Shown here: positions 3,608 through 29,236 of the stretch, one piece after another
Position numbering within the stretch: position 1 is the first letter of the stretch
Layout of the letters: every line of letters begins with the position of its first letter
Source of the DNA: Pyrinomonadaceae bacterium
GTDB taxonomy: Bacteria > Acidobacteriota > Blastocatellia > Pyrinomonadales > Pyrinomonadaceae
DNA length: 62,968 nt
NCBI GenBank assembly: GCA_036374695.1
Contig: DASUTF010000269.1
Coordinates: 1-62,968 of the forward strand
Reading direction: 5' to 3'
Notes under the pieces: generated by a model
Seen by the model: the letters and a program-made list of their open reading frames with translations, nothing else
The model's database searches: none
What the model was told of the DNA's origin: nothing
Position numbers and translations under genes: made by a program

Positions 3608-4729
3608 GTGGCGGGGACAAAGAACATGGTTAACAGAAGTTTCAAATCAGGGTCCTCAAGGCCGAGCGCGGAATCGCGCCGCCAGGCGGTACTCGCAGCA
3701 ATCATTCACGAGCATCTGCGCACCGGAGACGCGATTGGCTCGCACACCGTGGCGGAGAAGTTTGCGCACGCGACGGGGTGGAGCTCCGCGACCATCCGCA
3801 ACGTGATGGCTGAGTTGGATGAGTTTGGGTTACTCGAACAACCGCACACGTCCGCTGGTCGTATTCCGACGGATCGAGGGTACCGTTACTACGTCGATAA
3901 CATTATCAGCAGCACGCGCCTGTCGAAATCAGATCTGAAAGCGATTGAGGACATTGGTAAGGTCGAGCAACTGACGGCGCGACCGGATCGATTGATGGAG
4001 CGCGCGTCACATGTGCTTTCCGAGCTGTCCGAGAACGTAGGGATCGTGGTATGGCCGTCGCTTGCGGACAATGGACTGCAACACATTAGCTTTGTGAATC
4101 TTCCGGACAGCCGGATCCTGGTGGCGATAGTTTCAACGCCAAACGTCGTGCAGGACAAAGTCATTAGAGTGGACGAGAAATTCACGCAGGACGAGTTGGA
4201 TGGAATCGCGCGTTATCTCAACACCGAATTTCACGGCAAGAACCTGCGTGCCATCCGTGCCGAGATGGTTCGGCGCATGAAAGAAGAAAGAGCTTTGTAC
4301 GACGGGTTGCTGCGAAACGCTGTCTTGTTGTGCGAGCGAAGCCTGGAAGGCGAAGAGAGTGACGGTGGAGAGGTTTACATCGATGGCGCTTTTAATATCC
4401 TGACCAAACCTGAGTTCGCCAATCGCGAAGAGCTGCGCGAACTTTTGCGAACGCTTGAAGAAAAATCACGGCTGGTGAAAATCCTGACGGAATGTCTTGC
4501 CAGCGATCCGATCCATCGTAAGGTGAAAGTGATCATCGGCAACGAGAACGTCATGCCCTCAATGAAAAGTTGCGCAGTCATCACGGCATCGTACCGGTTG
4601 GATGGTGAAGTCTCAGGCACATTGGGAGTCGTTGGCCCCACGCGAATCGAGTATGGCCGCACAATGGCTGTGGTAAACTACCTTGCACGGTTTATCGAAC
4701 GTGCACTGTCGAACGACGCGGCGCCCTAA
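3608..4729 (+). CDS. hrcA: Heat-inducible transcription repressor HrcA
   Basis: N-terminal winged-helix segment IGSHTVAEKF...SSATIRNVMAELDEFGLLEQPHTSAGRIPTDRGYRYYVD. Heads a grpE-dnaK-dnaJ cluster. Start is either GTG 3608 or ATG 3626. Confidence 0.9.
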   Translation: MAGTKNMVNRSFKSGSSRPSAESRRQAVLAAIIHEHLRTGDAIGSHTVAEKFAHATGWSSATIRNVMAELDEFGLLEQPHTSAGRIPTDRGYRYYVDNIISSTRLSKSDLKAIEDIGKVEQLTARPDRLMERASHVLSELSENVGIVVWPSLADNGLQHISFVNLPDSRILVAIVSTPNVVQDKVIRVDEKFTQDELDGIARYLNTEFHGKNLRAIRAEMVRRMKEERALYDGLLRNAVLLCERSLEGEESDGGEVYIDGAFNILTKPEFANREELRELLRTLEEKSRLVKILTECLASDPIHRKVKVIIGNENVMPSMKSCAVITASYRLDGEVSGTLGVVGPTRIEYGRTMAVVNYLARFIERALSNDAAP

Positions 4730-4782
4730 CGAAGGGTTCGGTCCGTATCGATTCCCTGAAAACCAGGAAAACACGAAGATTT

Positions 4783-5445
4783 ATGGCATCAGACCGAAAA
4801 TCACAGGCCGGGAACCGCATTCCGATTCATTTCGAAGGCGAAGACGTGGGAGGAGAAGAATTTGCCACAGATGCCTTGACGGCTGAAGATGACGATTTCG
4901 TAGAGCTTGAGTCGAAGGCGGCAAGTGACGCGGAAGGCGGTCCGGCCGTGGCAGAGTTAGTGGCGACGCGCGCTGAGTTGAAGCGACTGCAAAATGCGCT
5001 GGCTGAAGCGCAGGAAGCGGTACTTCGACGACAGGCGGATTTCGAAAATTACCGCAAGCGGGTCGAGCGCGAGCGCGGTGAAACCCACAGCCGACTTGTC
5101 GGCGACGTCGCGAAAAAATTGCTGCCCGTCGTGGATAATCTTTCGCGCGCGCTGGACGCTGAGCGTTCTGTTGAGACCAGCGAGTCGGCAGAGTTTCGCC
5201 ATTTCCTGCACGGAGTTGAGTTAATCAACAAACAACTTACAGAGGTGCTGGAGTCCTTCGGCGTCGAGCCAATCGCCGCAGTTGGTGAACCTTTCGATCC
5301 TCACGTGCACGAGGCGGTGGTTACCGAACCCTCCGATGAACACGAACCTGACACAGTGATTGAAGAACTCGCCCGCGGTTACCGAATCGGCGACCGCTTG
5401 CTGCGACCTTCGATGGTCAAAGTCGCGGCACACAAAGACGGCTAA
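4783..5445 (+). CDS. grpE: Nucleotide exchange factor GrpE
   Basis: [58 protein letters not shown]. Confidence 0.93.
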
Positions 5446-5456
5446 CCCTTTTTCTT

Positions 5457-7283
5457 ATGGGGAAAATAATTGGAATCGATTTAGGAACGACCAATTGCTG
5501 CGTCGCCGTCCTGGAGGGCGGCACGGTTCAGATCGTTCCTAACAAAGAAGGCGGCCGCACTATGCCGAGCGTTGTCGGTTTTACCGACAAGGGCGAACGG
5601 CTGGTCGGACAAATCGCCAAACGCCAGGCTGTCACCAACTCAGCCAATACAGTCTATGCGGTCAAGCGACTAATCGGCCGTAAGCTCGATTCAGCAGAAG
5701 TGAAACGGATGTGCGCCACGGTGCCGTTCGAGATTGTGAATTCACCGAACGGCGACGCGCGCGTGCAAGTCCAGGGGAAGGTTTACAGCCCGCCGGAACT
5801 TTCCGGGATCGTGCTGCAGCGTTTGAAGGCCGCCGCCGAAGACTTTCTGGGTGAAGCGGTCACGGACGCGATAATCACGGTTCCCGCTTACTTCGACGAC
5901 ACCCAGCGGCAGGCGACAAAAGACGCGGGCAAGATCGCGGGCCTGCTGGTCAACCGCATCATCAACGAGCCCACCGCGGCCGCACTGGCGTATGGCCTGG
6001 GCAAGTCCGAAGCCGAGAAGATTGCGGTGTATGACCTCGGCGGCGGCACCTTCGACATTTCGATCCTCGAAATGAACAACGGGGTGTTTGAGGTCCTTTC
6101 CACGGCCGGAAACACGTTCCTCGGCGGAGAAGATTTTGATGAGGCGATCATGAACTGGATGGCGGAACAGTTCATGGAGGACACCGGCATCGATCTTCGT
6201 AAAGACCGTTTGGCACTCCAGCGTTTGAAGGAAGCGGCCGAACGCGCCAAATGCGAACTTTCGTCGGCCTCGGAAACAAGTTTCAATCTTCCGTTTATCG
6301 CGGCCGACGCAACCGGCCCCAAGCACCTGAACAAGACGCTCACGCGCGATAAGTTCGAGGAGTTGGTCGGCGGACTGGTTGAGCAAACCGTTGAGCCGTG
6401 CGAGCGCGCTTTGCGTGATGCAAAACTCGATGCCGCGCAAATCGACAAAGTGATTCTGGTCGGCGGGCAGACGCGTTCGCAGATCGTCGAGCGCACCGTC
6501 GACAAGATTTTCGGAAAGAAACCGTCAACGGAGATCAATCCCGACGAAGTGGTCGCCATGGGCGCGGCAATTCAGGGCGGCGTGCTGACCGGTGACGTGA
6601 AAGACATCGTGCTGCTGGACGTGTTGCCGTTGAGCCTTGGCCTGGAAACGCGCGGAGGGTTGTTCACGAAAATCATCGAACGCAATTCGACGATCCCGCT
6701 GCGCAACAGTCTGAACTTTACAACCGTTGTCGATAATCAATCGTCGGTAGAAATTCACGTGCTCCAGGGCGAGCGCGACGTCTCAACGGGTAACCGAAGT
6801 CTCGGAAAGTTTGAATTGGTTGGCATTCCGCCAGCGCCGCGCGGCGTGCCGCAGATCGAAGTTTCATTCGAGGTCGATGCGAATGGAATCGTGTCAGTCT
6901 CGGCGACTGACAAAGCGACAGGCCGCGAACAGCAGATGCGCATCACGCCGACTTCCGGTCTTTCTCAGGAAGAGATCGACCGCATCATCAAAGAAGCCGA
7001 CACGATGGCCGAAAGCGACCGCTCACAGCGAGATAAGATCGCTCTACAGAACAAGCTGGCGAGCCTGGTCCGGAACACCCACCGTTCGTTCATTGAGTTC
7101 GGGGGGCTGCTGGAAGCCGAGCAACAGGAAGCCGGCGAGCGCGTTTTGGCGGAGGGCGAGGCGGCCGCGAGGGCCGAGGAGATCGGGGAAATCAGAATGG
7201 CTCTCGATGCGGTTGAGCGGCTGGGCCGACAGCTGACGGCAGCGATGATGAAATCAGCCGGTGTCGACCCGAAAGACGATTGA
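5457..7283 (+). CDS. dnaK: Molecular chaperone DnaK (Hsp70)
   Basis: [55 protein letters not shown]. Confidence 0.98.
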
Positions 7284-7382
7284 GCAAGTAGCGCACTTCG
7301 GGATAGAATTTCCCTGCGGTCAGTGGCTTTGCCGTACAGTCGGCACATCTGCTGGCCGCTCGTTTCGATAAATACGAATTTC

Positions 7383-8504
7383 ATGGCAAGCAAACGCGAT
7401 TATTACGAGGTTCTGGGCGTCAGCCGCAACGTCACCGAGCAGGAGTTGAAGAGCGCTTACCGCCGGCTCGCGCACCAGCATCATCCAGACAAGAATCAGG
7501 GCGACTCGGAGGCCGAAGACAAATTCAAAGAGGCAGCCGAGGCGTATGCCGTGCTGTCCGATCCCGAACAGCGCAGCCGCTATGATCGTTTTGGTCACGC
7601 CGGCGTTTCGAGTGCGGCCGGCGCGGCATGGGGAGCACCGGGTTTCGGCGGCATCGAAGACATTCTCGGCGATTTGTTCGGTTTCGGCGATGTGTTCGGC
7701 GCGGCAGGCCGGAGCGGCGCGCGCCGCTCAACGCAGCAGCGCGGCGCGGATCTACGTTACGACCTCGAGATTTCTTTGGAGCAAGCCGCAACCGGCATGA
7801 CGGCGCAGCTTCGCATCCCGAAACTCGAGGCGTGCGAAGCGTGCGATGGCGCCGGCACGGCTCCGGGAACAAAACCGGAAGCGTGCCAGACCTGCGGCGG
7901 CGCCGGCCAGGTTCGTTTTCAGCAGGGCTTCTTTTCGGTCTCGCGCACCTGCGGCAATTGTCGCGGCGCGGGACAAATAATCACTTCCCCCTGCGATAAA
8001 TGCCGGGGCCATGGGCGGGTTGAGCGCGAGAAACAGATTGAAGTGAAGATTCCCGCCGGCGTCGAGACTGGTTCGCGACTCCGTTTGCAGAGTGAAGGCG
8101 AGTCGGGAGCGTATGGCGGTCCGGCCGGCGATCTGTACGTGGTAATTCACGTCGCTGAACACGAGTTGTTCGAGCGGCAGGGAAACAATCTCTATTCGGC
8201 CGTTCCGGTGACGTTTGCGCAGGCCGCTCTCGGAGCTGAAATTCAGGTTAAGACGCTGAGCGGCGAAGACGCGCTGAAAATTCCCGCCGGCACTCAGACA
8301 GGCACTGTGTTCCGCGTGCGCGGCCAGGGAATGCCCGTGCTGGGCGGCCGGGGCCGTGGCGATTTGTTCGTCTCAGTCTCAGTCGTGACACCCACGATGT
8401 TAACGCGCGAACAGCGCAAGCTTTTGGAACAGCTTGAGCGGATCGAAACAAAGGATTTGGAAGACAAGAAGCTGTCCGAAAAAGTTCGAGATATCTTCGG
8501 CTGA
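7383..8504 (+). CDS. dnaJ: Co-chaperone DnaJ
   Basis: J domain MASKRDYYEVLGVSRNV...HHPDKN, G/F-rich linker, and four CxxCxGxG zinc-finger motifs (CEACDGAG, CQTCGGAG, CGNCRGAG, CDKCRGHG). The track ORF starts at 7323, but the J domain begins at ATG 7383. Confidence 0.95.
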   Translation: MASKRDYYEVLGVSRNVTEQELKSAYRRLAHQHHPDKNQGDSEAEDKFKEAAEAYAVLSDPEQRSRYDRFGHAGVSSAAGAAWGAPGFGGIEDILGDLFGFGDVFGAAGRSGARRSTQQRGADLRYDLEISLEQAATGMTAQLRIPKLEACEACDGAGTAPGTKPEACQTCGGAGQVRFQQGFFSVSRTCGNCRGAGQIITSPCDKCRGHGRVEREKQIEVKIPAGVETGSRLRLQSEGESGAYGGPAGDLYVVIHVAEHELFERQGNNLYSAVPVTFAQAALGAEIQVKTLSGEDALKIPAGTQTGTVFRVRGQGMPVLGGRGRGDLFVSVSVVTPTMLTREQRKLLEQLERIETKDLEDKKLSEKVRDIFG

Positions 8505-8540
8505 TGCGGCCCCGGGGCGGCCTGCGCGTTTAGTTTTATG

Positions 8541-8626
8541 CCCTCTCCGCTGCGCGGAGAGGGGATCGGGGAGAGGTTGGCACGGCCGTAACCCCGCCCT
8601 TTCCCCCTCCCCACTTGTGGGGAGGG
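8541..8626. repeat. Pair of perfect 10-bp-stem hairpins downstream of dnaJ (CCCTCTCCGC-TGC-GCGGAGAGGG and CCCTCCCCAC-TT-GTGGGGAGGG)
   Basis: Both stems were read directly at 8541..8563 and 8605..8626. There is no T-tract, so these are REP-like rather than a canonical terminator. Confidence 0.75.
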
Positions 8627-8682
8627 TAATAGCGACGCGCAAAACGATTCGTCGTCGCCGTCTATTCTCCGAGAGGTTACCC

Positions 8683-9843
8683 ATGAAATCCCCTTTCCAA
8701 TTGCGTAGTTTGATTTCGTTAATACTTCTGTTGGCGGCTTCCTCAGTCGCGGTGGCTCAGGATAACTACCCCGAGATGAAGCAGTGGGAGTCCTTTGACT
8801 TTGCTTCAAAGCGTATCTCGGCGGCGGATGTCGCAAAGGTAAAGCCCGAAAACCTGCAGTTGATGCGCGGCGTCGTGTTCGGCAAGCACGGCCGCATCTT
8901 TAAAGACTGGGAAATCAAGACCTACCTGCAATCCCGTGACTGGTACAAGCCGAATCCGAACTTTACGAACTCAACGCTGAACGATACCGAGCGAGACAAT
9001 CTCGACGTCATTCGTATCGCTGAAGCCGAACACCACGAGACGGTGCAGCCCGGCGATATGCGCCTTTATCAGAATCGTCTGTTGACACGGAGGAAGCTGG
9101 GCACGCACACCAACGCGGAGTGGACGGTGTTGGCAGCCGAAATCGAAGCCATCCACGGAAAGCGTTTCGACGATCAGCCCTGGCTTCAGCAGTACCTGGA
9201 AGAGAGGTACTGGTACAAGGCGGCCGATAACTACAAGCCGAATCTTAACGCGATTGAGCAGAAGAACCTGAAGTTGATCGACACGATTCGCCGACAGCAA
9301 CGACGCGTGGCGCTTCAGCCGGGCGACATGGAGTTGTTTGAGAACAAGCTGATCAGCGAGGCGATGCTGCGTGGGTTAAGCCTGCACGAGCTGCGCTTGC
9401 TGCGCAACGAAATCTACGCGCGCCACGGCCGCGTTTTTAAGACGCTCTGGCTCCAGCAATACTTCGGCAGCCAGATGTGGTACGACCCGAACGAGAACTT
9501 CAAGGACGAAGAGCTTTCGGGTCCTGACAAGACAAACGTCGAGACGATCGTCGCGTACGAAAACAAACTGCACAATCAACTCAGCACGAAGCCAATCACG
9601 CGCGCCCTGTTGCAGGGGCTGTTCATCGAGGACGTTCGCAAGATGCGTGACGAGATTTACGCTCGTCGCGGCAAGACGTTCACCAATCGCTGGACGCAGA
9701 AGTATTTCGAGAGTCTGGACTGGTACAAGGCCGATCCGAAATTCAGCGACGCGTCGTTGACTCCGATCGAGAAAAGGAACGTGGCGACTATCGCCGCTTA
9801 CGAGAAACGGGCCGTAAGCGCGATGAGCGTCATAGAAGGTTGA
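8683..9843 (+). CDS. Secreted protein with four YARHG-domain repeats
   Basis: Signal peptide MKSPFQLRSLISLILLLAASSVAVAQ, then four repeats of the type MRGVVFGKHGRIFKD...WYKPNPNF / EIEAIHGKRFDD...WYKAADNY / LRNEIYARHGRVFKT...WYDPNENF / MRDEIYARRGKTFTN...WYKADPKF. The track ORF start 8434 lies inside the upstream hairpin repeats; ATG 8683 is preferred. Confidence 0.85.
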   Translation: MKSPFQLRSLISLILLLAASSVAVAQDNYPEMKQWESFDFASKRISAADVAKVKPENLQLMRGVVFGKHGRIFKDWEIKTYLQSRDWYKPNPNFTNSTLNDTERDNLDVIRIAEAEHHETVQPGDMRLYQNRLLTRRKLGTHTNAEWTVLAAEIEAIHGKRFDDQPWLQQYLEERYWYKAADNYKPNLNAIEQKNLKLIDTIRRQQRRVALQPGDMELFENKLISEAMLRGLSLHELRLLRNEIYARHGRVFKTLWLQQYFGSQMWYDPNENFKDEELSGPDKTNVETIVAYENKLHNQLSTKPITRALLQGLFIEDVRKMRDEIYARRGKTFTNRWTQKYFESLDWYKADPKFSDASLTPIEKRNVATIAAYEKRAVSAMSVIEG

Positions 9844-9898
9844 TAAGGCCAACTTTGGGCGCCGCGTGACGGCGCCGAGAAAAAAGGCAATAAGCAGT

Positions 9899-9937
9899 GG
9901 GCAGTGAGCAGATTATCTGCTACTGCCCTTTGCTTTT
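9899..9937 (+). terminator. Rho-independent terminator after the YARHG gene
   Basis: Stem GGGCAGTGAGCAG / CTGCTACTGCCC with loop ATTAT, followed by TTTGCTTTT. It overlaps the stop codon of the convergent amidohydrolase gene. Confidence 0.6.
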
Positions 9938-11318
9938 AGAGGCTCTCGATTTTCCGGCGAGTGGTTTGTAGCTGCGACTGGAATTCGAATTCATCTACGG
10001 TAGTGACCTTATCGTTCCGATAGACTTCTTTTCCCGCCACCATCGTCATTCGAACATCGCGTCCTGAAGAGGAAAAAATGAGCGTATCCACCGGATTCGT
10101 GGGCGGTTGCTGATGAGCGCTGTCGAGCGCCACGGCAATAATGTCAGCCTGCATTCCTTCTGCCAGCGAGCCAATCTGACGATCAAGTCCCAGGGCCCGG
10201 GCGCCGCCGAGCGTGGCCGCGAAGAGGGCATCAGTGGCACAGACTTCAGTCTGTGGTGCACTCGAGTCACGACTCAGACTGAAGTCTGTGCCACAAACCC
10301 GCGCCAGCAACGTCGCAAAGCGCGCTTCTTCGAGAATGTCACAGTTGTTGTTGCTGGCCACCGAATCGCTGCCCAGGCCAACATTCAAATTCGCCCTGAG
10401 AAACCCGGGGAATGGCGCTCGCCCATGGCGCAGCTTCGCGTTCGATTTGGGACAATGAGCGACGCCCGCGCCCGCGCCGCGAATCGTTTCAATATCCGCG
10501 TCGTTGACAGTTACGCAATGGGCAAGCAACGGCCGCGTTTCCAACACGCCGTGCCGGGCCAAATACTCGATCGTCGATAGCTTCTGTGGTTCCCAATCAA
10601 TGCCGCGCGCGCGCAAGCCCTCGGCGAATGGTCCGGTCCCCTCAAGCATGAACAACGCTTCTGCTTCAGATTCGGCTGCATGCATCATCAGCGGCAGTTT
10701 TTCGTCGAGAGCCAGCCGCGAAATTAATTCGAGTTGTGCCGCGCTGACAGTGTAGGGCGCATGCGGCGACACGCCGGCGCGTACATTCGCTGATGCCAGA
10801 GCGCGCAATTCCTCAAGTTGCGCGCCTAGCGTCGAAACGTTCTCGGCCGCGAGCAGCGGATCCGGCCCAAACGACTCCTGGTACACAATTCCGCGCAGGC
10901 CGATCTTGCGCAAAGCCTTCATCGACTGCGCCGCGGCTGAACTTGAATCGCCGACGCACGTTATTCCGGCGCGCGCCGCTTCGATCGCGCCGCAGGCGGC
11001 TGAAACAAAAAGATCGGCGGCGGTCATCGACAGACGCGCGACGGTCAACTTCCGCAGCCATGCGAAAAAGTCAGTCTCCACGCTTTCCAGAAAGCCGCGC
11101 ATGACCGTCAACTCGAGGTGCGAATGGGCGTTGACCAGTCCCGGCAAAAGAACGCTGGCGCCGAAATCCGTGACCACCGCATGAGGGAAACGCGCGCTGA
11201 GAGCTTCCCGGGCGCCGGCACCGACGATCATTTCGCCGGCCACGGCCACCGCTCCATTCTCAATCGGCGGTGACGCGATTGGCAGCACCCAGCGCGCTGA
11301 ATAGATCGCCGTCATCAA
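9936..11318 (-). CDS. Amidohydrolase-superfamily deaminase/chlorohydrolase (MtaD/SsnA/TRZ-ATZ-like)
   Basis: LLPGLVNAHSHLELT metal-binding motif, HAAES, HCV, GLGSDS. Carries an in-frame palindromic insertion (see 10234..10294). Confidence 0.8.
   Translation of the reverse strand: MMTAIYSARWVLPIASPPIENGAVAVAGEMIVGAGAREALSARFPHAVVTDFGASVLLPGLVNAHSHLELTVMRGFLESVETDFFAWLRKLTVARLSMTAADLFVSAACGAIEAARAGITCVGDSSSAAAQSMKALRKIGLRGIVYQESFGPDPLLAAENVSTLGAQLEELRALASANVRAGVSPHAPYTVSAAQLELISRLALDEKLPLMMHAAESEAEALFMLEGTGPFAEGLRARGIDWEPQKLSTIEYLARHGVLETRPLLAHCVTVNDADIETIRGAGAGVAHCPKSNAKLRHGRAPFPGFLRANLNVGLGSDSVASNNNCDILEEARFATLLARVCGTDFSLSRDSSAPQTEVCATDALFAATLGGARALGLDRQIGSLAEGMQADIIAVALDSAHQQPPTNPVDTLIFSSSGRDVRMTMVAGKEVYRNDKVTTVDEFEFQSQLQTTRRKIESL
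10234..10294. repeat. Perfect 20-bp inverted repeat embedded in the amidohydrolase CDS
   Basis: GTGGCACAGACTTCAGTCTG (10234..10253) and CAGACTGAAGTCTGTGCCAC (10275..10294) are exact reverse complements separated by 21 nt. Translated in frame as ...CGTDFSLSRDSSAPQTEVCAT... Confidence 0.9.
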
Positions 11319-21756: not shown

Positions 21757-24315
21757 TTATTTCTCCACTGCCATGCCCTCGGTGTTGTCGCCAGGGAAGT
21801 AGCGCGTGGCATCGGCAACAAGTACGCCGTCGGCAACGAGCACGCCGCGACCGTCGGCAATGAGCACGCCGCGGCCGTCGGCTAATAGAGTGCCATCTGA
21901 CAAGAGAACGCCGTCGCTAATCAGCACGCCATCGCCGATGAGAACGCCGTCGCTGAGCAACACGCCGTCACTGAGGAGAACGCCGTTCGTCATGAGCACT
22001 ACGCCGTTACTCATCGCCATGCCGGTGCTAATCATGATGTTGTCGCTGAGCAGCACGCCGCTCGACAGCATGGTGTTGTCGCTCAACAGGACGCCATCAG
22101 AAATCAGCACGCCATCCGACAACAGGACGCCCTGACGGTAAATGGCCTGGTACTTGGTGATCAGCGCCGCGCCCGTGGCCCAGTTGTGATTGAAAATCAC
22201 TCCCTGCGACCATTCGAAGGTTTCGCCCGCGATGGTTGTCTTCGAGAGCGGTGCCGAACTGGTCAAGAGCGGCGAACCGACGGCAGTAGTGCCGTTGAAA
22301 TCTGTGCGCATGGCCTTCGCCAATCGCACAGCGCCTTCCAGGTTTACCTCTCCCGCGCCCTGCTCCAGCGTGTTGTAGCCCTTCAAAGACTGCGCCGTGT
22401 ACATGAGAATCATCTTCACCATGTTCGGCGTTAGCCGCGGATTGGCCTCGAGCATCACCGCCACTGCACCCGCAACGATCGGAGCTGACACCGAGGTGCC
22501 GCTCAGACGCATGGTGCCTTTGCCGCTAGGCGATCTGCAATCCGACACACAGAGTTCGGGATTTTTCGCTACCAGGTTGTTGACCGGCGCGGCCGCTCCG
22601 ATAATTTTGTTACCCGGTGCGACGACGTCCGGCTTGATCAGGTTGTCGTAATGCTTCACGCCCTGAGCATCTGTCCAGAAGCTGCGGGTGGGACCTCTCG
22701 AACTGAATGTCGCGACTACATCATCGCTGCGCGCATCACTGCCGAAGGTGTTCACCGCGCCAACGGTGAGCGCCGATGGCTCGTTACCGGGAGAGTGAAT
22801 CCGGCCGTACAGTTTCGCGTGGGTATTATCCTTGCCCTCGTTTCCGGCTGCGGCGACCACCACGATGCCCGAGTTCACCAGCCAGCGGACCGTGCGACAG
22901 ACTGGATCGTTCTTATACGAATCCACAGCCGCTGTTCCCAGGCTGAGATTCACGACGCGGATGTTATACGTATTCCGGTAATACCAAACGGTGTAGAGGG
23001 CGTACAGCAAGCCTGATGTGGAACCGACACCCTGCGAGTTCAGCACGCGTAGGTTTAACAAGTTAGCACGGCCGGCAATGCCGCCGTACGGGCCATCCGG
23101 CGCGGCAATCATCGAAGCGACGAACGTGCCGTGGCCGTAACGATCTTCTGTAGTGCCTTCACCGGTAAAGTCACGGCTGTAAACGATGCGTCCAGCCAGG
23201 CTCTTTTGCCTCGGCGAGATTCCTGAATCCAGGACTGCGATACCAATGCCGCTTCCGTCCATACCCTTATTGCGCGGATTAGCCAGCATGGCTGTTTCGC
23301 CGATCGTGGTTTCGACGTGGCCCAGGCCTTTAAGCGGCCGATCGAGCGAAACGTACTTTGCCCACTGACTGGACGCCAGCTCAAAAACTCCCGTGGTCGG
23401 AATCTCGACCGCAAGAGTCTTGAAGGCAGCGAGCTCGGTGCTGGGTTTAACACCCCACTCCGCCAGCTTGGCGCGCAGTTCAGGGTTGTTAAGGTCGCTG
23501 ACTTGAAGAATCACTTTGACGGTTGCCGGCCCGCCGGGAGTCTCAATGACCTCGCGCAAGTCATCTGAAATCTTTTCGCCGGTAAACTCTTCAGTGTCGG
23601 CGGTTTCGGCGTTGGCCTCTTCGTTGTTCGTTTCGTTAGCAGCGGTCGCTTCCGTAACTTGGATTGTGGTAAACAGCGACGCCAGCTTCTCGTCGCCGGC
23701 TATCGCGTCCTCGAATGTGCCGTGGGTCGAAGCGCCGATGCACTTGAACTTGCCGGCCGCGATCGCTTCGCGCACAAATTCGGAAACAGTCGCGTCAAAC
23801 GCGGCTGACGTGCCGACGAGAGAGTGAAGGGGATCGATAACGAGGATGACTTTGGTATCTGAATTTTCGATTTCGGACAGAACCGCCGCCAGCGTGGTTT
23901 TGAGTTGTTCTGCATTCTTTGTGTCGTGGAAGAGCTTGTCCAGGTCGAGTTTCAACACGCGGCGGCCCATCAATTCTTCCGGCCCTTGTCCGCGAGCAAT
24001 CTGACGGGCTACTCCGGCGATGACGACGTTGCGCTCAGCCTGCGAGTCGGTCAGCAGGACAGGATTGTTTTGCTCGGCCAGAATCGCCAATGCGCGGGTG
24101 ATCTCTTTGGCTTGATCGCTAAACGAATCGAATTTCCCCTGTTCGGCTGCGGCAGTAATGTCGCGGGTGTATCGCGCCAGAGCGGTGGGGGCGGCTGGCT
24201 CATTAACCTGCGCCTGAGCGGTGTCGCTGACCAGGATTCCCAGCAAGAGGGAAACGGCTATCGTGGCCGCTGTCAGCGACCGCCAGGTAATCGGGGGTAG
24301 GTTTGTGTGTCTCAT
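21757..24315 (-). CDS. Secreted subtilisin-like serine protease (S8) with N-terminal degenerate Clp/Hsp100 NBD1-like module and C-terminal hexapeptide array
   Basis: Signal peptide (..LGILVSDTAQAQ). Residues about 45-220 are Clp NBD1-like. Acidic linker, then I9-like propeptide. Catalytic motifs IAVLDSG (D), HGTFVAS (H), SGTSVSAP (S). Residues 729-835 form the hexapeptide array. Confidence 0.9.
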   Translation of the reverse strand: MRHTNLPPITWRSLTAATIAVSLLLGILVSDTAQAQVNEPAAPTALARYTRDITAAAEQGKFDSFSDQAKEITRALAILAEQNNPVLLTDSQAERNVVIAGVARQIARGQGPEELMGRRVLKLDLDKLFHDTKNAEQLKTTLAAVLSEIENSDTKVILVIDPLHSLVGTSAAFDATVSEFVREAIAAGKFKCIGASTHGTFEDAIAGDEKLASLFTTIQVTEATAANETNNEEANAETADTEEFTGEKISDDLREVIETPGGPATVKVILQVSDLNNPELRAKLAEWGVKPSTELAAFKTLAVEIPTTGVFELASSQWAKYVSLDRPLKGLGHVETTIGETAMLANPRNKGMDGSGIGIAVLDSGISPRQKSLAGRIVYSRDFTGEGTTEDRYGHGTFVASMIAAPDGPYGGIAGRANLLNLRVLNSQGVGSTSGLLYALYTVWYYRNTYNIRVVNLSLGTAAVDSYKNDPVCRTVRWLVNSGIVVVAAAGNEGKDNTHAKLYGRIHSPGNEPSALTVGAVNTFGSDARSDDVVATFSSRGPTRSFWTDAQGVKHYDNLIKPDVVAPGNKIIGAAAPVNNLVAKNPELCVSDCRSPSGKGTMRLSGTSVSAPIVAGAVAVMLEANPRLTPNMVKMILMYTAQSLKGYNTLEQGAGEVNLEGAVRLAKAMRTDFNGTTAVGSPLLTSSAPLSKTTIAGETFEWSQGVIFNHNWATGAALITKYQAIYRQGVLLSDGVLISDGVLLSDNTMLSSGVLLSDNIMISTGMAMSNGVVLMTNGVLLSDGVLLSDGVLIGDGVLISDGVLLSDGTLLADGRGVLIADGRGVLVADGVLVADATRYFPGDNTEGMAVEK
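21811..22131 (-). repeat. 18-nt periodic coding repeat (G-V-L-[LIV]-[SA]-D hexapeptides, about 17-18 units)
   Basis: GVLLSDGVLISDGVLLSDNTMLSSGVLLSDNIMISTGMAMSNGVVLMTNGVLLSDGVLLSDGVLIGDGVLISDGVLLSDGTLLADGRGVLIADGRGVLVADGVLVAD. Confidence 0.9.
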
Positions 24316-27217: not shown

Positions 27218-29236
27218 ATGAGAAGAATCAGAATCCATCGAGTAGCCGCGTGGCTAACTTGTTTCTCAGTTTTGGTTTCATTGTCGGCTGGGATTCTCGT
27301 GGGGGAACGGGCTCATGCAGCATCTCATGAGAACTCGCCGCAAGCCACAAAGGTATCTTCGGACCTGGCTGAGAAGGCACGCGGACCAAAAAACACGGAT
27401 CCGGTGAAAGTGATTCTCCAACTCAACGGACCCATGAGCGGGCAACTGACTGCTTTGCTTAATAAGAATGGCGCACATATCAACAAAACATTCAAGAATC
27501 TTGGTGCACATGCTATTGACCTGCCCGCCGCCATCGTCGACCAGATAGCCGCTTTTGACGAGGTGGCCTATATCTCTGTTGATCGAGAAACCCGTGCGAC
27601 TGGCCACCTGACTGCCACCACTGGAACAGACTTAGTACGTACCCAGAGTAACCTCCTGGGTGGTACACAGACATTGGATGGAACCGGAATTGGCATTGCC
27701 GTTATAGACTCAGGGTTAGATCTCGGACACGTGGCCTTCCAGGACAAGTATGGTTATAGGCGAATCGCAGTAAGCAAAGATTTTACCGGCGAGAATCGCG
27801 TTGATGATCCCTATGGTCACGGAACACATGTGGCCGCGATCGCAGCCGGTAACGGCAAGGTGGCAAGTGGGGCGTACACAGGTGTGGCTCCGAATGCGAA
27901 GCTTGTAAATCTCCGCGTCCTGAATTCAACGGGAACTGGAACTGTCTCCGCTACTCTCGCTGCGCTGGATTGGGTATTGACGCATCGAAGCGATTACAAC
28001 ATTCGTGTGGTCAACATCAGTCTTGGTACAGCTGCCATTGATTCGTATAAATACGATCCAATTTGCCGGGCTGTGCGCCGGCTTGTCGACGCGGGCGTGG
28101 TGGTGGCTGCTGCGGCCGGAAATGATGGAAAGAACAGTGCCGGGGAGAAGGTCTATGGACTAGTTCATTGCCCCGGCAATGAACCATCGGCGATTACCGT
28201 TGGAGCGGCAAATACGTTTGGCACTGACGCACGCAACGATAATGGGGTCACGACTTATAGCTCGCGCGGCCCGACCCGTAGTTACTGGACTGACGCCAAC
28301 GGACTCAAACATTACGACCACTTGATGAAGCCGGATTTGGTCGCACCTGGCAACAAGATTATCGGTGCTGAAGCTGACGATAACCTTTTGGTGACTGAGA
28401 ATCCGCAACTGGACGCCGGTGTTAGTAACTACGAGAATCGCAAATACATGTACCTCAGCGGTAGCTCGATGGCGACGCCAGTCGCCGCCGGCGCCGCGGC
28501 CCTGCTTTTTCAGGCCAATCCCACCCTCACGCCGAACATGATTAAGGCCCTCCTGATGTATACGGCACAACCGCTGCGAGGCTTCAATACCCTCGAGCAG
28601 GGCGCGGGCGAACTCAACGTTGAGGGTGCCGTCCGCGTGGCTCGGTTGGTACGTACGGACTTTGGAAACACCAAGCCGATCGGAGCACCTCTCCTGAACA
28701 CACTACTCCCGCCCGCACCTTTTACGACAATCGCCGGACATACGTTTACGTGGTCCCAGGGAATTCTCCTGGGCCACCGCTTCGCGACGGGTACGAGCCT
28801 GATCACCAAGTATCAGCCTGTTTATGTCAGCGGCGTTCTATTGAGTGAGGGAATTATCGTCAGCGATGGCGTCCTTCTGAGCGAGGGAATCATTGTTAGC
28901 GATGGCGTTCTTCTGAGCGAAGGGATCATCGTTAGCGACGGTATTATCGTCAGCGATGGCATCATTGTCAGCGACGGTATTATTGTCAGCGATGGCATAA
29001 CGATTAGTGACGGGGCGCTTTTCGTCAGCATGGGCATCATTGTCAGCGATGGCATCATCGTTAGCGATGGCTATGTACTGGCTGACGGGATAATTGTTAG
29101 CGACGGGATCATCGTCAGCGATGGCATCATCGTTAGCGACGCCTTCGTTCAGGCGCAGACCGCGATGGTCGCCGGCGATCTTGGCCCGGCTTGCCCGGTG
29201 GTGGTCGACAATGGCGTGGACTACACCGAAAACTGA
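27218..29236 (+). CDS. Secreted subtilisin-like serine protease (S8) with I9-like propeptide and C-terminal hexapeptide array
   Basis: Signal peptide (LTCFSVLVSLSAGILVGERAHA). IAVIDSG (D), HGTHVAA (H), SGSSMATP (S). Long stretches nearly identical to the 21757..24315 paralog (e.g. GNEPSAITVGAANTFGTDAR / SSRGPTRSYWTD / APGNKIIGA). Residues 539-641 form the hexapeptide array. Confidence 0.92.
   Translation: MRRIRIHRVAAWLTCFSVLVSLSAGILVGERAHAASHENSPQATKVSSDLAEKARGPKNTDPVKVILQLNGPMSGQLTALLNKNGAHINKTFKNLGAHAIDLPAAIVDQIAAFDEVAYISVDRETRATGHLTATTGTDLVRTQSNLLGGTQTLDGTGIGIAVIDSGLDLGHVAFQDKYGYRRIAVSKDFTGENRVDDPYGHGTHVAAIAAGNGKVASGAYTGVAPNAKLVNLRVLNSTGTGTVSATLAALDWVLTHRSDYNIRVVNISLGTAAIDSYKYDPICRAVRRLVDAGVVVAAAAGNDGKNSAGEKVYGLVHCPGNEPSAITVGAANTFGTDARNDNGVTTYSSRGPTRSYWTDANGLKHYDHLMKPDLVAPGNKIIGAEADDNLLVTENPQLDAGVSNYENRKYMYLSGSSMATPVAAGAAALLFQANPTLTPNMIKALLMYTAQPLRGFNTLEQGAGELNVEGAVRVARLVRTDFGNTKPIGAPLLNTLLPPAPFTTIAGHTFTWSQGILLGHRFATGTSLITKYQPVYVSGVLLSEGIIVSDGVLLSEGIIVSDGVLLSEGIIVSDGIIVSDGIIVSDGIIVSDGITISDGALFVSMGIIVSDGIIVSDGYVLADGIIVSDGIIVSDGIIVSDAFVQAQTAMVAGDLGPACPVVVDNGVDYTEN
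28832..29140 (+). repeat. 18-nt periodic coding repeat (G-I-I-V-S-D / G-V-L-L-S-E hexapeptides, about 17 units)
   Basis: GVLLSEGIIVSD x3, then GIIVSD runs, one irregular GITISDGALFVSM segment, then GIIVSD..GYVLAD..GIIVSD x3. Confidence 0.92.

Follow-up and report, generated by a model that had tools for sequence, protein, structure and literature searches.

What can a domain built like an ATP-driven motor do outside the bacterial cytoplasm? The question is raised by a gene (21757..24315, minus strand) in a stretch of 62,968 nucleotides from a Pyrinomonadaceae soil bacterium (Acidobacteriota; assembly GCA_036374695.1, contig DASUTF010000269.1, positions 1 to 62,968), hereafter the window. AAA+ domains work as motors driven by ATP, in the cytoplasm and in organelles that contain ATP, and the bacterial periplasm and exterior are devoid of it. 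The gene is complete, with an intact open reading frame (ORF) of 852 residues, and with high confidence it encodes a Sec-exported peptidase S8 precursor with a folded N-terminal pseudo-ATPase domain. This domain, hereafter the module, is, with near certainty, homologous to the first nucleotide-binding domain (NBD1) of ClpB-type Hsp100 proteins and catalytically dead. The best overall explanation, which we consider somewhat probable, is that of an exported S8 precursor in which a captured pseudo-NBD1 serves as a nucleotide-independent accessory of the pro-region.

Homology of the module and its motor sites

The module (residues ~41-225; 23641..24195, minus strand) is a member of the Hsp100 NBD1 fold family by homology. 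The original prediction had placed a ClpB-like region at residues 45-220 (23656..24183, from ALARYTRDIT to TTIQV), and translation returned exactly these residues, together with TDSQAERN at 24028..24051 and the dipeptide DP at 23830..23835. Residues 36-240, compared with PDB sequences using phmmer, matched the NBD1 of Plasmodium ClpB (2p65, E 6e-28) and of E. coli ClpB (1jbk, E 7.4e-28), followed by ClpC, ClpA and Hsp104, in colinear alignments across ~180 residues. The NCBIfam ClpB model TIGR03346 matched with E 1.1e-33 (model positions 154-338 of 853), and the ClpA and ClpV models scored below it. Identity to the NBD1 of ClpB and Hsp104 was about 33-36%. Pfam displayed nothing significant on residues 1-240 (the best candidates, AAA_25 and NBD_SMAX1, were sub-threshold), and a Pfam scan of the window protein retrieved no AAA_lid, Clp_N or AAA_2. 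As Pfam is blind to the module, establishing its homology required NCBIfam whole-protein models and PDB sequences.

The predicted structure agreed with the sequence matches and with the original expectation of a ClpB NBD1 fold. An AlphaFold2 (AF2) model built from an alignment of 30 sequences, active ClpB NBD1s among them, reached a predicted local distance difference test score (pLDDT) of 89.1 and a predicted template modelling (TM) score of 0.85. Its top match in Foldseek was 1jbk (E 2e-14, TM 0.78/0.82, root-mean-square deviation 2.2 Å), and a shallower model from six sequences (pLDDT 64) left this ranking unchanged.

The part of the class I Hsp100 proteins ClpB and Hsp104 that is homologous to the module is the large alpha/beta subdomain (1jbk, 2p65; TM ~0.8), whose signatures L..Y..DLT..A..GK, NNPV, G.A..I..G.(V)PE.L, ILxID and IGA(S/T)T were kept. 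Unlike in ClpB and Hsp104, the module stands behind a signal peptide, is fused to a subtilase, and forms a single truncated domain without motor residues; the match was confined to the large subdomain, and the Clp_N domain, the lid subdomain, the M-domain and NBD2 were all absent. The module and several of its relatives also gave weak or sub-threshold matches to NBD_SMAX1 (PF23569), the Pfam domain of the ClpB-like plant proteins SMAX1/D53. SMAX1 and D53 repress signalling in the cytosol or nucleus, have a complete double NBD, and are neither exported nor fused to a protease.

The sites that define a functional AAA+ domain were degenerate nearly throughout, in the window protein and across its relatives. 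In place of the Walker A sequence GEPGVGKT, residues 89-96 (24028..24051, minus strand) read TDSQAERN, with R95 at the lysine position, and the pattern GxxGxGK[ST] was also missing from all of about 55 relatives. The Walker B remnant VILVIDP (residues 156-162; 23830..23850, minus strand) departed from hhhhDE in that the first acidic residue (D161) was retained and the catalytic glutamate was replaced by proline; most relatives displayed DQ and a minority kept DE. Pore loop 1 (residues 130-137; 23905..23928, minus strand) read HDTKNAEQ against AGAKYRGE in active proteins, and the tyrosine of KYRGEFE was gone family-wide. The arginine-finger segment (residues 212-215; 23671..23682, minus strand) read ASLF instead of ERRF, and AKLF in most relatives, so that S213 and L214 occupied the finger positions, of which one was variable in the family and the other was leucine in 79% of non-redundant members. 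The sensor-1 motif GATT was altered as well (residues 194-197; 23725..23736, minus strand); most relatives read GGAS, and the window protein has GAST, a conservative change. The catalytic substitutions of the original prediction were confirmed, with the refinements that the first Walker B aspartate is kept and that the sensor-1 change is conservative.

When 38 non-redundant family members were set against 83 non-redundant active NBD1s across 184 alignment columns, what had been kept could be told from what had been relaxed. The same residue was conserved in both sets in 33 columns, including the scaffold motifs L..Y..DLT..A..GK, NPV, G.A..I..G.VP..L, ILF.D and IG. Another 34 columns were conserved in active NBD1s yet variable in the family, and these included the adenine-contact DPVIGR, the Walker A glycines and threonine, the pore loop, the Walker B glutamate, sensor-1, LKPALARG and one arginine finger. 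Four columns were conserved in both sets with different residues (Walker A lysine to arginine in 76% of members, two glutamates to alanine, and the second arginine finger to leucine), and just four were conserved in the family and not in active NBD1s. Within subfamilies the former P-loop was itself conserved, for example as GESDLDRDA or SESDVNRAA, in company with a Walker B DQ. The pattern in these columns is one of a scaffold kept and motor sites relaxed, with no obvious new active site across the family. With high confidence, these substitutions indicate that the module retained the Hsp100 scaffold residues and no longer has the means to bind nucleotide (Walker A), to hydrolyse it (Walker B glutamate), to thread substrate (pore-loop tyrosine) or to activate adjoining protomers (arginine fingers); it cannot be an ATP-driven unfoldase.

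Spread of the family and selection on the module

Scanned by pattern, with each GTDB species represented by one genome, four further species yielded orthologs, all of them Pyrinomonadaceae or Acidobacteriota metagenome-assembled genomes, with a module identity of 89-93%. In each of the four the ORF was intact and full length (846-857 residues), and the order murJ / gene / nnr-tsaE was conserved at the ortholog loci. In the window gene itself there was neither a stop codon nor a frameshift between module and S8 domain. A chimeric join or a frameshift, which the original prediction had named as a possible refutation, was ruled out by these independent species-level genomes.

Among the five orthologs the module evolved under strong constraint, with a nonsynonymous rate (dN) of 0.043, a synonymous rate (dS) of 0.31 and a dN/dS of 0.14, as compared with 0.142, 1.12 and 0.13 for the S8 domain. 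Nucleotide identity in sliding windows was 0.90-0.92 in the module, 0.71-0.85 in the S8 part, 0.73-0.79 in murJ and 0.87-0.93 in the best-conserved flanking genes. As displayed by dN/dS and by this identity profile, no other part of the protein is as constrained as the module, which is thus no relic in decay and is very likely functional. A nucleotide-level anomaly was considered for its low dS and dropped, since the module is as conserved as the best of the flanking housekeeping genes and it is the S8 part and murJ that evolve faster; a search of Rfam retrieved no RNA element.

The protease part showed a variability of its own. Among the five species the S8 region 22170..23360 was far more divergent than the module region 23660..24260, and one full-length ortholog (L003) and two fragments (P0010 and that of L001) displayed a visibly different class of N-terminal S8 sequence. 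These classes suggest allelic mosaicism or recombination in the protease part.

Beyond the close orthologs, no more than 10 fragments, all of them close, came from a word-indexed search for homologs, and the wider family was seen by exhaustive search with hidden Markov models. A profile search of 1.84 billion representative proteins displayed a graded series of relatives with a broken P-loop and a module starting 36-57 residues from the N-terminus, and a second search with the family profile added about 35. Dozens of these remoter metagenomic relatives kept the domain order, and all that were long enough continued into an acidic linker, an FxGxK[VI]SxDLRE segment, a propeptide-like segment and an S8 domain. 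The same order, from the signal peptide onwards, was thus found in at least 38 non-redundant relatives with differently degenerate P-loops, and was retained down to ~30% module identity. The most divergent member (L008) lay on a contig of 44% GC and was frameshifted, otherwise full length, and a neighbouring gene on that contig had its best named matches in Pyrinomonadaceae. All taxonomic labels seen for the family were Pyrinomonadaceae. Module-bearing S8 proteins are therefore a protein family of Pyrinomonadaceae and not a one-off.

Public names reflected this family poorly. The only names that relatives bore were "S8 family serine peptidase [Pyrinomonadaceae bacterium]" and "hypothetical protein", with ClpA or ClpB given to fragments. 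In data of the Joint Genome Institute (JGI), fragments P0009, P0183, P0189, P0208 and P0210 were named "ATP-dependent Clp protease ATP-binding subunit ClpA/ClpB", and full-length genes only "S8 family serine peptidase". The labels are systematic mis- or under-annotation.

Concerning origin, a neighbour-joining tree with 55 modules of the family and an equal number of active NBD1s recovered the family as monophyletic in 47 of 60 bootstraps, a proportion that long-branch attraction among degenerate sequences could inflate; before this test, the regular-expression calls of dead modules were corrected by hand for eight active or unrelated Hsp100 variants. The nearest active relatives in the tree carried the ClpB-type pore loop AGAKYRGE, in agreement with the higher scores of ClpB in the PDB and NCBIfam comparisons. 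The simplest reading is that an ancestor within Pyrinomonadaceae captured the large subdomain of a ClpB-like NBD1 once, and that the family then radiated. No clp donor gene was found beside the window gene, the module being the only Hsp100-like sequence in the window. On another contig (L007), the distant relative P0217 (former P-loop GESDLARDA) lay 1.2 kb from a divergent, apparently active ClpC-type Hsp100 gene that was frameshifted in the assembly, the pair spanning 4100-6700 (minus strand) and 7166-9376 (plus strand). This neighbour is possibly a coincidence, and could also be a trace of the donor locus.

The window also holds an S8 paralog without the module (27218..29236, plus strand; 672 residues). 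The original prediction had called it close and lacking the module. The family profile matched it at positions 207-310 only, in line with the missing module, while identity to the main gene was 48% over residues 209-836, which is not close. The paralog has its own signal peptide, and its mature part begins directly after this at the KVSxDL helix, so that module and linker look like an insertion between signal peptide and pro-region. It adjoins tsaE in the window genome only, and was absent from the corresponding flanks of the five other loci compared (L001-L005). The paralog was about equidistant from all module-bearing subfamilies, and may have lost the module or never had it.

Export signal, pro-region and catalytic part

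The N-terminus carries the features of a Sec-type signal peptide (residues 1-35; 24211..24315, minus strand). Manual analysis delimited an n-region MRHTNLPPITWR with R2 and R12, a hydrophobic core of 17 residues, SLTAATIAVSLLLGILV, and a c-region SDTAQA↓Q that agrees with signal peptidase I, without a lipobox cysteine or a twin-arginine motif. The same rules were satisfied by 41 of the 42 complete N-termini of the family, typically with A-x-A↓Q, and the exception was a truncated gene call. The proposal that the module sits directly behind a Sec-type signal peptide was borne out at this level, and the protein is most probably extracytoplasmic.

Downstream of the module, the order first proposed (acidic linker, I9-like propeptide, intact S8 core) was recovered for the linker and the catalytic core, and the I9 propeptide lacked a significant Pfam match. 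The linker (residues 222-243; 23587..23652, minus strand) is of low complexity, with seven D/E and no K/R, varies in length and sequence across the family, and fell below a pLDDT of 50 at its start in the AF2 model. The propeptide-like segment (residues 244-333; 23317..23586, minus strand) is conserved across the family and in the module-less paralog; it opens with the FxGxK[VI]SxDLRE helix and continues with an I9-like pattern to SLDRPLKGLGH. Pfam gave no match at E <= 10 on residues 231-353 of the window protein, and PF26036 (Peptidase_inhib_put) matched ortholog P0001 weakly. A profile of the segment aligned with PDB entries 1scj_B (E 0.16), 1spb_P (0.21), 8c4z_A (0.44) and 3whi_A (1.0), all weakly and in one register, and hhalign against the BPN' prosegment gave a probability of 13%.

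The peptidase S8 domain (residues 354-652; 22360..23256, minus strand) matched Pfam PF00082 with E 3.1e-43, and its D-H-S triad was intact and in order, with the motifs VLDSG (D363), HGTFVA (H395), AAAGNEG (oxyanion N492) and SGTSVSAP (S608). Its nearest solved relative was 3afg ("Subtilisin-like serine protease"; E 5.5e-36), which we take to be the Tk-SP precursor of Thermococcus kodakarensis including its propeptide, and the alignment began in the last part of the pre-catalytic segment and continued onward. An anti-phage S8 system (IetS/IteS) was rejected as a candidate, PADLOC and NCBIfam matching the generic S8 core only (56.9 bits against a cut-off of 900) and the module giving no match. 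Within the S8 domain a cysteine pair, CVSDC (residues 589-593; 22537..22551, minus strand), recurred as CVSNC, CVSEC, CVADC and CVSSC in the full-length orthologs L002-L005, as would fit a disulfide formed outside the cytoplasm under oxidising conditions.

The C-terminus is formed by about 14 hexapeptide repeats of GVLLSD type (residues 729-835; 21811..22131, minus strand), recovered as 18-nt periods by Tandem Repeats Finder, with Pfam Hexapep and LbH_EIF2B below threshold. The paralog ends in a similar array of GIIVSD type (28842..29139, plus strand), and the distant relative on L008 carried GIMFSD repeats (9272-10510). Such arrays may form a left-handed beta-helix for multimerisation or surface attachment; left-handed beta-helices often trimerise. 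After the repeats, a motif GDNT.[CG]M..E at the extreme C-terminus (21760..21792, minus strand) was conserved in all five orthologs and could be a sorting or anchoring signal, although to our knowledge it matches no described signal. ORFs of 100-130 residues on the plus strand, at 23516..23827, 23905..24300 and 21806..22135, are most likely spurious, since they overlap a minus-strand gene under clear purifying selection.

Role of the module outside the cytoplasm

The following course would reconcile a dead NBD1 with an exported protease. The precursor would pass the inner membrane unfolded, and its signal peptide would be cleaved after AQA. Outside the cytoplasm, the pseudo-NBD1 (~20 kDa), the flexible acidic linker of ~22 residues and the I9-like propeptide would make up a pro-region in two parts, ~300 residues long. 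Its I9-like portion would help the S8 domain to fold and transiently inhibit it, as in characterised subtilases, and the pseudo-NBD1 would act without nucleotide as an accessory domain, keeping the zymogen soluble or latent or supplying a binding surface. As it lies upstream of the propeptide, the module would leave with it, or at the linker, upon autoprocessing. This particular role, in which the module would assist within the pro-region and be lost when the enzyme matures, is proposed tentatively.

Several points weigh against an exported precursor with such an accessory. In the clade of the window the module is held more strictly than the protease domain itself, exceeding what would be expected of a bulky appendage of a pro-region, and the 184 columns displayed no new surface patch, conserved family-wide, that would hint at a defined binding function. 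Sec export and signal-peptide cleavage are read from the features of the signal peptide, and residues 244-333 are propeptide-like by position and register, the I9 assignment being below significance. The AF2 alignment, in which active ClpB sequences were included, leans toward the NBD1 fold, and the possible inflation of monophyly by long-branch attraction bears on the single capture.

The module could also remain on the mature protease, or bound to it, as an exosite that binds substrates, cell-envelope components or a partner without nucleotide, and would then be an ATP-free remnant of the protein binding of a chaperone; we regard this, which could also be retention for anchoring and is the main rival, as rather unlikely. 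Its conservation among the five species is what a specific interaction surface would show, the domain order has been held over a wide range of divergence, and the change of the Walker A lysine to arginine, together with the subfamily-conserved GESDLDRDA, suggests a remodelled pocket and not mere decay. However, the module is N-terminal to a propeptide-like segment, and in characterised subtilases this segment is cut off, so that everything upstream would go too. The pore-loop tyrosine and neighbouring conserved substrate-contact residues of Hsp100s are gone, the column comparison found no new patch, and the linker, acidic and variable, is probably accessible to proteases.

A related proposal, to which we give a low probability, is that the pseudo-NBD1 serves in an ATP-free space as an ATP-independent holdase-like or substrate-capturing domain, chaperoning its own precursor or presenting substrates. 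If true, what was an AAA+ motor would have become, in this lineage, a chaperone or exosite that acts passively outside the cell, and the empty nucleotide pocket would have been remade as a ligand or cation site, with arginine in place of lysine and an acidic former P-loop.

Another alternative, a scaffold on which AAA+-like rings, or pairing with an AAA+-like protein, would yield a multimeric extracytoplasmic protease, is very improbable. The large AAA+ subdomain is a ring-forming fold, and the C-terminal hexapeptide repeats hint at multimerisation. A precedent is given by the luminal domains of LAP1 and LULL1, which have an AAA+-like fold without canonical nucleotide motifs outside the cytosol, that of LAP1 pairing with the ATPase Torsin (PMC4358337). 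As a precedent in concept for a pseudo-AAA+ domain outside the cytoplasm they come nearest, but they are eukaryotic proteins found in the endoplasmic reticulum and the perinuclear space, are not derived from an Hsp100 NBD1, and work in a compartment that contains ATP, where an active partner ATPase receives their strictly conserved arginine finger. The arginine through which LAP1 acts is missing in the module, as are both arginine-finger residues of Hsp100s and most columns conserved in active NBD1s, and no gene for an exported active AAA+ partner was found in the neighbourhood. The lid subdomain, which is half of the AAA+ protomer interface, is absent, the match ending at ClpB model position 338, and there is no nucleotide to bridge protomers.

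It is hardly credible that the N-terminal hydrophobic stretch is an inverted anchor, with the bulk of the protein facing the cytoplasm and the module binding nucleotide non-canonically to regulate the protease. The hydrophobic core is rather long at 17 residues, the first Walker B aspartate is kept, and DQ, found in many relatives, matches the classical ATP-trapping E-to-Q mutation of Walker B. Nevertheless, positive charges precede the hydrophobic stretch and AxA↓Q follows it in all but one of the family N-termini, none of the glycines, lysine and threonine of the P-loop is left, acidic residues often standing in their place, the same signal peptide is found in the S8 subfamily and in the paralog without the module, and the recurring cysteine pair fits an oxidising compartment. 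A relic or artefact, in which a clp fragment and a protease gene were joined by accident or the N-terminal part belongs to a gene of its own, is the least likely alternative and already largely refuted by intact ORFs in five genomes, a dN/dS of 0.14 and the same order in at least 38 non-redundant relatives, although several database entries (P0001, P0002, P0008) are truncated or frameshifted, these being at contig ends or in assemblies that split other genes too, and JGI calls some fragments ClpA or ClpB.

Known pro-subtilases (subtilisin E or BPN', 3afg) are close to the protein in that they share a signal peptide, a pro-region (putative in the window protein) at the N-terminus, an S8 D/H/S domain and a C-terminal accessory region. 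These have a single I9-like pro-region of ~70-110 residues, whereas the window protein has a pseudo-ATPase domain of ~185 residues and an acidic linker upstream of its propeptide-like segment. Lon and FtsH likewise hold an AAA+ module and a protease domain in one polypeptide. Their AAA+ module is active, cytoplasm-facing and hexameric, and feeds substrates to the protease, whereas that of the window protein is dead, predicted to be exported, without a lid and fused to the unrelated S8 class. A 2008 survey of prokaryotic serine-protease architectures recorded AAA only with Lon (S16; LON-AAA-S16) and never with S8 (PMC2605481). In the literature, the coverage of which was incomplete, no description was found of a ClpB-derived domain in a secreted subtilase or of an AAA+-derived subtilase pro-region, in line with the original suspicion; in some of the family proteins, a region resembling a P-loop NTPase is probably marked by automated domain databases already.

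Shuffling of accessory domains is common in secreted proteases, and this architecture, well supported and tractable by experiment, would still surprise a specialist. As public data already list fragments of the family as ClpA or ClpB, it is also a warning for annotation. With the scaffold kept behind a signal peptide, the motor residues lost and strong purifying selection acting in a radiating protease family, the Hsp100 NBD1 fold is shown to have a nucleotide-independent use, and the family is a natural system for an AAA+ core without ATP. For Pyrinomonadaceae, a lineage assembled from many metagenomes, the module defines a kind of pro-region or accessory domain that had not been annotated before in their S8 enzymes.

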